Assembly: GCF_013167455.1 (NCBI RefSeq)
Contig: NZ_CP038328.1
Strand: one strand, 5' to 3'
From: Escherichia coli O157:H7
GTDB lineage: Bacteria; Pseudomonadota; Gammaproteobacteria; Enterobacterales; Enterobacteriaceae
Length of the DNA stretch: 64,000 bases
Below, piece by piece: positions 48,653 to 49,150 of the stretch; position 1 is the stretch's first letter, and each line of letters opens with the position of its first letter. The notes beneath the pieces are model-generated. The model ran no database searches, was not told the origin of the DNA, and was given only the letters and a program-made list of their open reading frames with translations. The position numbers and the translations under genes are program-made.

Positions 48653-49150
48653 TTATGAAATGATACGCTCCCCGGCACTAAAATCCGTTATGTCTCCCGC
48701 CCAATCAATGGGATATAACCCTCGCGCCACATCGCGATGGAACGTTGAGAATGGCCAATCACTCACTTGCTTTACCCAGCCATGTTTTACTGGATTTATA
48801 TAAATATAATCAACATGATGGCGATAGTCTTTGGTATTGCGGATGGTGTGCTCCTAAAAACGTGGTTGCCAGATATTTTTCAATCCACAAGCATGGGTGA
48901 ACTGCTTTTTAATCTCCCGCCAGCGGGAGGAAAAATCATCATCGCTTTCGGGTAATGTCCATATGCAATGCATATGCTCCGGCAAAACGACCCAGGCGTT
49001 AATTTCAAAAGGTCTGTCTCGCTTAACGTTAATAATGGCGTTACGGAGCATCTGGAACTGAGCGGTCAGAAGGTGGCTTCGACGATTTCGTAGGTTAACC
49101 GTGAAAAACCAGGTTCCCCCTTTGATGTAATACCGACGATATTCAGACAT
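48653..49150 (-). pseudogene. rayT: REP-associated tyrosine transposase RayT with internal amber stop
   Basis: ORF track gives only 98 aa (48854..49150); TAG at 48854-48856 is followed in frame by 67 further sense codons (EHTIRNTKDYRHHVDYIYINPVKHGW...) to TAA at 48653-48655; HuH motif HMH present in the N-terminal part. Confidence 0.8.

Follow-up and report, generated by a model that had tools for sequence, protein, structure and literature searches.

Whether a gene broken by a single in-frame amber codon is dead, throttled, put to another use or simply misread is the question raised by rayT (yafM, tnpA-REP), the REP-associated transposase gene of Escherichia coli O157:H7. The gene was analysed within a 64,000-nt stretch of contig NZ_CP038328.1, referred to here as the window. 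The best explanation, to which we assign a probability of roughly 0.93, is that this is the chromosomal, single-copy rayT of O157:H7 at its usual locus, that its Trp99 codon has become an amber codon fixed in the clade, and that the lineage is a natural RayT null. The gene is already known as a pseudogene from public records: PGAP annotates 'rayT, pseudogene, internal stop' in O157:H7, O55:H7 and the isolate NJS001, and the Sakai reference record reads 'yafM: pseudogene'. The O157:H7 amber allele goes unmentioned in the RAYT and REP papers PMC3333891, PMC3479197, PMC8266576, PMC8049555, PMC5581495, 10.1101/2021.07.10.451892 and 10.1101/2022.05.22.493013, the first of which shows O157:H7 as tnpA(REP)-carrying, with no comment.

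Frame and identity of the interrupted gene

The frame opens with an ATG at 49148-49150 on the minus strand and runs for 98 sense codons to the TAG, beyond which it continues for 66 sense codons to a TAA at 48653-48655 (Table 1). With codon 99 taken as sense it measures 498 nt, or 165 codons and a stop. The causal change is a G to A substitution at CDS nt 296 (window position 48855, C to T on the plus strand), which converts TGG (Trp99) into TAG. When Trp is placed at residue 99, the read-through translation aligns over residues 1-165 with residues 1-165 of the E. coli MG1655 TnpA(REP)/RayT of PDB 4ER8 (E = 1.8e-113), a K-12 protein that itself has Trp at residue 99. This end-to-end alignment with TnpA(REP) shows that the open frame beyond the stop has not arisen by chance. 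The same protein scores 176.8 bits against the NCBIfam equivalog NF047646 (RayT; cutoff 80).

Table 1. Features of the rayT locus and its REP flanks (window positions).
Feature	Position	Strand	Remarks
rayT (yafM, tnpA-REP) pseudogene	48653..49150	-	Full 165-codon frame and TAA, interrupted at codon 99
5' ORF, 98 codons, N-terminal RayT fragment including the HuH motif	48857..49150	-	From the sequence
Amber TAG, codon 99	48854..48856	-	TGG (Trp) in all intact alleles
HuH motif H59-M60-H61, CAT ATG CAT	48968..48976	-	From the sequence; residue numbers as in PMC3479197
Catalytic Tyr115 codon, TAT	48806..48808	-	Past the stop, untranslated; residue as in PMC3479197
REP, 3'-side BIME, GTAG foot	48548..48581	-	Exact REPIN master 21-mer at 48552-48572; 0 mismatches to pattern; hairpin -12.2 kcal/mol, z = -3.9
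REP 2, 3'-side BIME, opposite orientation, GTAG foot	48598..48633	+	Repeat family D2; hairpin -9.7 kcal/mol, z = -3.4
REP, 5'-side BIME, GTAG foot	49246..49281	+	2 mismatches; family D2; hairpin -11.7 kcal/mol, z = -6.1
REP 2, 5'-side BIME, GTAG foot	49296..49329	-	2 mismatches to pattern; weaker hairpin -6.8 kcal/mol, z = -1.8

An earlier note, made from the letters of this DNA alone, had read much of this correctly. Its placing of the ORF end at the TAG after 98 codons is borne out by sequence and frame, and its naming of the gene as rayT by the 4ER8 and NF047646 matches; the TAA, the 165-codon length and its other coordinates also stand, but its 67 sense codons between TAG and TAA are in fact 66. 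The Trp (TGG) that it gave for intact homologues is present in K-12 and in all six of the intact alleles aligned. It had also stated that the product keeps the HuH motif and loses the C-terminal catalytic tyrosine, and indeed H59-M60-H61 lies upstream of the stop and Tyr115 downstream, while the REP clusters that it saw on both flanks resolve into one BIME per side.

K-12 RayT (PDB 4ER8) is the orthologue. The two genes share the yafL-rayT-lfhA locus, a length of 165 codons, 92.8% nucleotide identity and BIMEs on both sides, and the codons for HuH, Y115, N119, H123 and E161 are the same in both; the number of amino-acid differences is nine, stop included. They differ in that codon 99 of O157 is TAG instead of TGG, with residues 1-98 alone translated and the enzyme, on this evidence, presumably dead. 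A Pfam search of the rayT product at the default threshold gave no match. Under relaxed settings PF01797 (Y1_Tnp) scored 15.8 bits, short of its gathering score of 23, over residues 21-69 only, a weakness consistent with RAYTs being distant relatives of the IS200/IS605 transposases. RayT shares HuH/Y1 chemistry and a fold family with the IS200/IS605 Y1 transposases (PF01797; PMC3479197), but it is monomeric and single-copy, has a C-terminal auto-inhibitory tail, lies outside any mobile IS and matches PF01797 only below threshold. E. coli RayT has been assigned to RAYT Group 2 (PMC5581495).

Descent makes the gene a rayT orthologue, with full-length homology to 4ER8, a match to NF047646, the HuH motif, inverted GTAG-footed REP flanks and a single copy at a conserved locus. 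What is missing is the HuH motif and the catalytic tyrosine on one uninterrupted polypeptide, the Y115 codon lying 16 codons past the TAG; the product would not be a functional member of the family, and the gene is hence filed as a pseudogene.

Spread and age of the amber allele

The CDS search returned 310 complete RefSeq records at least 99% identical to the query, and the exact 61-mer centred on the TAG is likewise present in 310 complete RefSeq records; the equal counts suggest that the collection holds no TGG-bearing allele at least 99% identical to this one. Carriers of the TAG allele include O157:H7, the O55:H7 strains CB9615, DEC5B and USDA5905, and the pig isolate NJS001. Over its whole 498 nt, the gene in CB9615 and in NJS001 matches the window exactly, and many O157:H7 chromosomes share a 741-nt stretch around rayT at 100% identity. 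The allele is fixed in the O157:H7/O55:H7 clade and, because both serotypes carry it, the G to A change predates their split.

Six intact alleles (K-12, PS10-3, TOK-001, L73, 23S01245-7 and IAI39) were compared with that of the window, with which they share 92.8-95.2% nucleotide identity. Codon 99 is TGG in 6/6, and it is the sole residue at which the O157/O55:H7 allele departs from every one of them. Only two bases are unique to the lineage, nt 225 (synonymous) and nt 296 (G to A). The allele is otherwise healthy and carries a single nonsense transition, and is therefore a young pseudogene. A lesion-free 3' part fits recent inactivation and would equally fit continued constraint. A near-identical intact sister allele was not found with either a TGG version of the 61-mer or a 5'-segment query: the intact alleles first obtained with the former were 93-94% identical, and the latter gave at most ~95%. 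With the nearest intact alleles only ~95% identical, the branch on which the mutation arose is therefore placed no more finely than before the O55:H7/O157:H7 split. The O157/O55:H7 allele as a whole looks mosaic.

Each O157 record has one rayT place, by megablast and by sensitive blastn alike, and no second copy was found in these records at the DNA level by sensitive blastn, the reach of which is ~65-70% DNA identity. Matches to rayT also occur on 13 plasmid-labelled records in PLSDB and on nine RefSeq plasmids; RAYTs have been stated never to be seen on plasmids (PMC8049555). Seven of the 13 are laboratory K-12 episomes of 214-242 kb, probably F' proAB-lac elements with this chromosomal segment. 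Others have unusual lengths (4.9 Mb, 834 kb, 47 kb) and are perhaps pieces of chromosome under a wrong label. Two plasmid-labelled records hold an allele 100% identical to that of O157 over the aligned part (the full 498 nt in one, 458 nt in the other).

Consequences of the stop and competing explanations

[quoted passage not shown] The catalytic mutant Y115F has no activity (PMC8266576). The truncated product retains the HuH motif and has lost Tyr115, N119, H123 and E161. Since RayT is monomeric, a fragment without a nucleophile of its own would have none to borrow from a partner and should not cleave REP DNA. Single-strand cleavage and rejoining of REP DNA are predicted to be absent, given that Y115 is missing and that Y115F is inactive. 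On these grounds the 98-residue fragment would be inactive, and it is probably unstable as well.

The events proposed are simple. One G to A transition would have turned Trp99 (TGG) into an amber codon before O55:H7 and O157:H7 separated, and the allele would later have become fixed in the clade. Translation would stop after 98 residues, leaving a fragment that keeps the HuH metal-binding triad and would be without the rest of the core fold, namely helix alpha-D (Tyr115, N119, H123) and the C-terminal tail (E161). Such a fragment would be unable to cleave or rejoin REP DNA, making the lineage a natural RayT null.

Two explanations would leave the gene with some function, and both are very improbable. 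The first is that ribosomes pass the amber codon, helped by a suppressor tRNA or through leaky termination, and that some active full-length RayT is made, the stop being a strong down-regulator instead of a knockout. The 66 downstream codons are intact and show no lineage-specific amino-acid change, and RayT normally inhibits itself and is kept under tight limits (PMC3479197), such that a trace amount could matter. However, an undecayed 3' part is just as expected of a young pseudogene, the O55:H7 and O157:H7 copies being 100% identical, and no suppressor tRNA is present in the window, the only tRNA of which is Thr-CGT. The earlier note had proposed looking for an amber suppressor in the genome, and the search made covered supE: supE (glnV-CUA) was matched in 155 records, of which the 60 listed are all laboratory strains of K-12 type, of 4.5-4.8 Mb, with no O157 among them; PV15-279, the O157 record that ranks first among equal matches in every rayT-locus search where it matched at 100%, is absent from these. 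Basal read-through of UAG in E. coli is very low. TAG is moreover the genuine stop of many genes, and a strong suppressor would be costly.

The second, no more credible, is that the 98-residue N-terminal fragment is retained because it does something itself, such as binding REP hairpins that it leaves uncut. By itself the fragment still scores 109.6 bits against NF047646, above the family cutoff of 80, it holds the HuH strand, and the allele has gone to fixation in a successful lineage. Against this, the match spans profile positions 1-109 of 146 and the fragment is without helix alpha-D (PMC3479197), which makes stable folding unlikely, and recognition of GTAG involves the residues around E161 in the missing tail (PMC3479197). 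Fixation needs no selection in a near-clonal lineage, and outright loss of rayT is seen in about a third of E. coli genomes (no match in 1,852 of 5,426 complete genomes). The least credible explanation, which the earlier note had named as what would overturn its reading, is that the TAG is a sequencing or assembly error in a genome that truly reads TGG; it can be set aside, as the 310 complete assemblies with the same CDS and the exact TAG 61-mer come from many laboratories, platforms and years and include O55:H7, and, to go by the equal counts, no allele at least 99% identical is without the TAG.

REP flanks, neighbouring genes and the loss of RayT

On each side of rayT lies one BIME, consisting of two REPs in opposite orientation, and four of the four REPs have a 5' GTAG foot and form imperfect hairpins. 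This layout is the 'REPtron' as described for E. coli (PMC3333891). The E. coli REPIN master 21-mer is GATGCGGCGTGAACGCCTTAT (PMC8049555), to which the REP at 49296-49329 has one mismatch, at 49300-49320. The REP at 49246-49281 is 93% identical to the copy at 48591-48636, with which it forms the direct-repeat family D2. We take the REP at 48548-48581 to be of the 'Y-type', and that at 48598-48633 to be of the 'Z2-type', of the older REP literature. The flanks of rayT recur in the genome and the CDS does not: the flanks match a median of 11 places per genome, and 17 in O157 records among the matches listed. A third, more diverged REP at 52522-52555 on the minus strand (three mismatches to the 34-nt pattern, two to the master 21-mer) maps to the lpcA-yafJ intergenic region and is the only further REP of its type in the window.

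The genes stand in their usual order, yafL-rayT-lfhA(remnant)-lafU-dinB, with yafL-rayT-lfhA kept in all strains compared, and O157:H7 PV15-279 is collinear with the window over positions 34175-64000, at 99.88% identity. Just downstream of rayT, on the opposite strand, a 579-aa FlhA-like ORF (46769-48508, plus strand) is an N-terminally truncated pseudogene in RefSeq, the lfhA/Flag-2 remnant, in all strains compared; with this remnant adjoining it, rayT therefore lies among other decayed genes. Adjacent rtcB and prfH fragments, mapped approximately to 42680-43405, are partial pseudogenes in O157:H7 and O55:H7. Approximate mapping on the collinear O157:H7 record places RHS core-protein fragments, two ISAs1-family transposase genes and a frameshifted ydcD at about 57400-64000, which is a decayed RHS element. 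At the other end, a tRNA-Thr(CGT) gene (34695-34770, minus strand) adjoins a 387-aa ORF (33517-34680, plus strand), where related records have a site-specific integrase. Below 34175 collinearity is lost with PV15-279, in which an IS1203-disrupted integrase and P4-like genes occupy that place, and, judging by annotation, also with O55:H7 CB9615, which is annotated with lambda-like prophage genes there. The region below ~34175 looks like a strain-variable island at thrW, and the dense minus-strand ORFs of window positions 1-30 kb look like a prophage.

RayT has been lost by other routes as well. In B2 strains rayT is precisely excised and the REPs are kept (PMC3333891), and in DSM 103246 (NZ_CP019944.1, locus 1-1133) an IS2 insertion has removed the N-terminus of rayT, an independent inactivation. 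rayT is dispensable, and the O157/O55:H7 stop is one of several routes of loss in E. coli. As in the rayT-less strains, RayT is missing from O157 and REPs and BIMEs are still in the genome, but in O157 the gene body is kept and point-mutated, and the loss is confined to the O157:H7/O55:H7 clade. A closer likeness in kind is found in Neisseria, where RAYTs with premature stops are inactivated in place and the REPIN population persists (10.1101/2021.07.10.451892); the Neisseria lesions are, however, frameshifts in homopolymeric tracts, maybe reversible by slippage, whereas that of O157 is a base substitution with no such tract.

The loss of RayT was probably neutral or nearly so, and REP and REPIN spread has probably halted in O157:H7 and O55:H7. 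RAYT-less E. coli have fewer REPINs (10.1101/2021.07.10.451892; PMC8049555). In the present clade the inactivation looks too recent for visible REPIN decay. A bolder proposal, to which we give only a slim chance, is that O157:H7/O55:H7 forms a natural, datable RayT-null lineage outside B2 with its REPtron intact, which might serve as a clock of REPIN decay; more speculatively still, the gene may be throttled and not dead, its retained, undecayed frame yielding trace RayT by read-through of the UAG or an N-terminal fragment that binds REPs.

Taken alone, this lineage-specific pseudogene, already annotated and derived from a gene for a dispensable, domesticated transposase, carries little weight. 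It bears, however, on how RAYT genes are counted. With K-12 YafM as the query, TBLASTN aligns through the stop over 165/165 positions at 94.5% identity, with E = 7e-106 (database size 5.5 Mb). A published RAYT survey used a filter of 1e-90 (PMC8049555), which this match passes, and such surveys would therefore score the dead allele as RAYT-positive. If O157:H7/O55:H7 genomes were included, the E. coli data relating REPIN numbers to RAYTs may accordingly hold a misclassified clade. The clade would represent a recent RayT knockout with a single-base cause, which could be compared with its nearest RayT-positive relatives for the dependence of REPINs on RayT.
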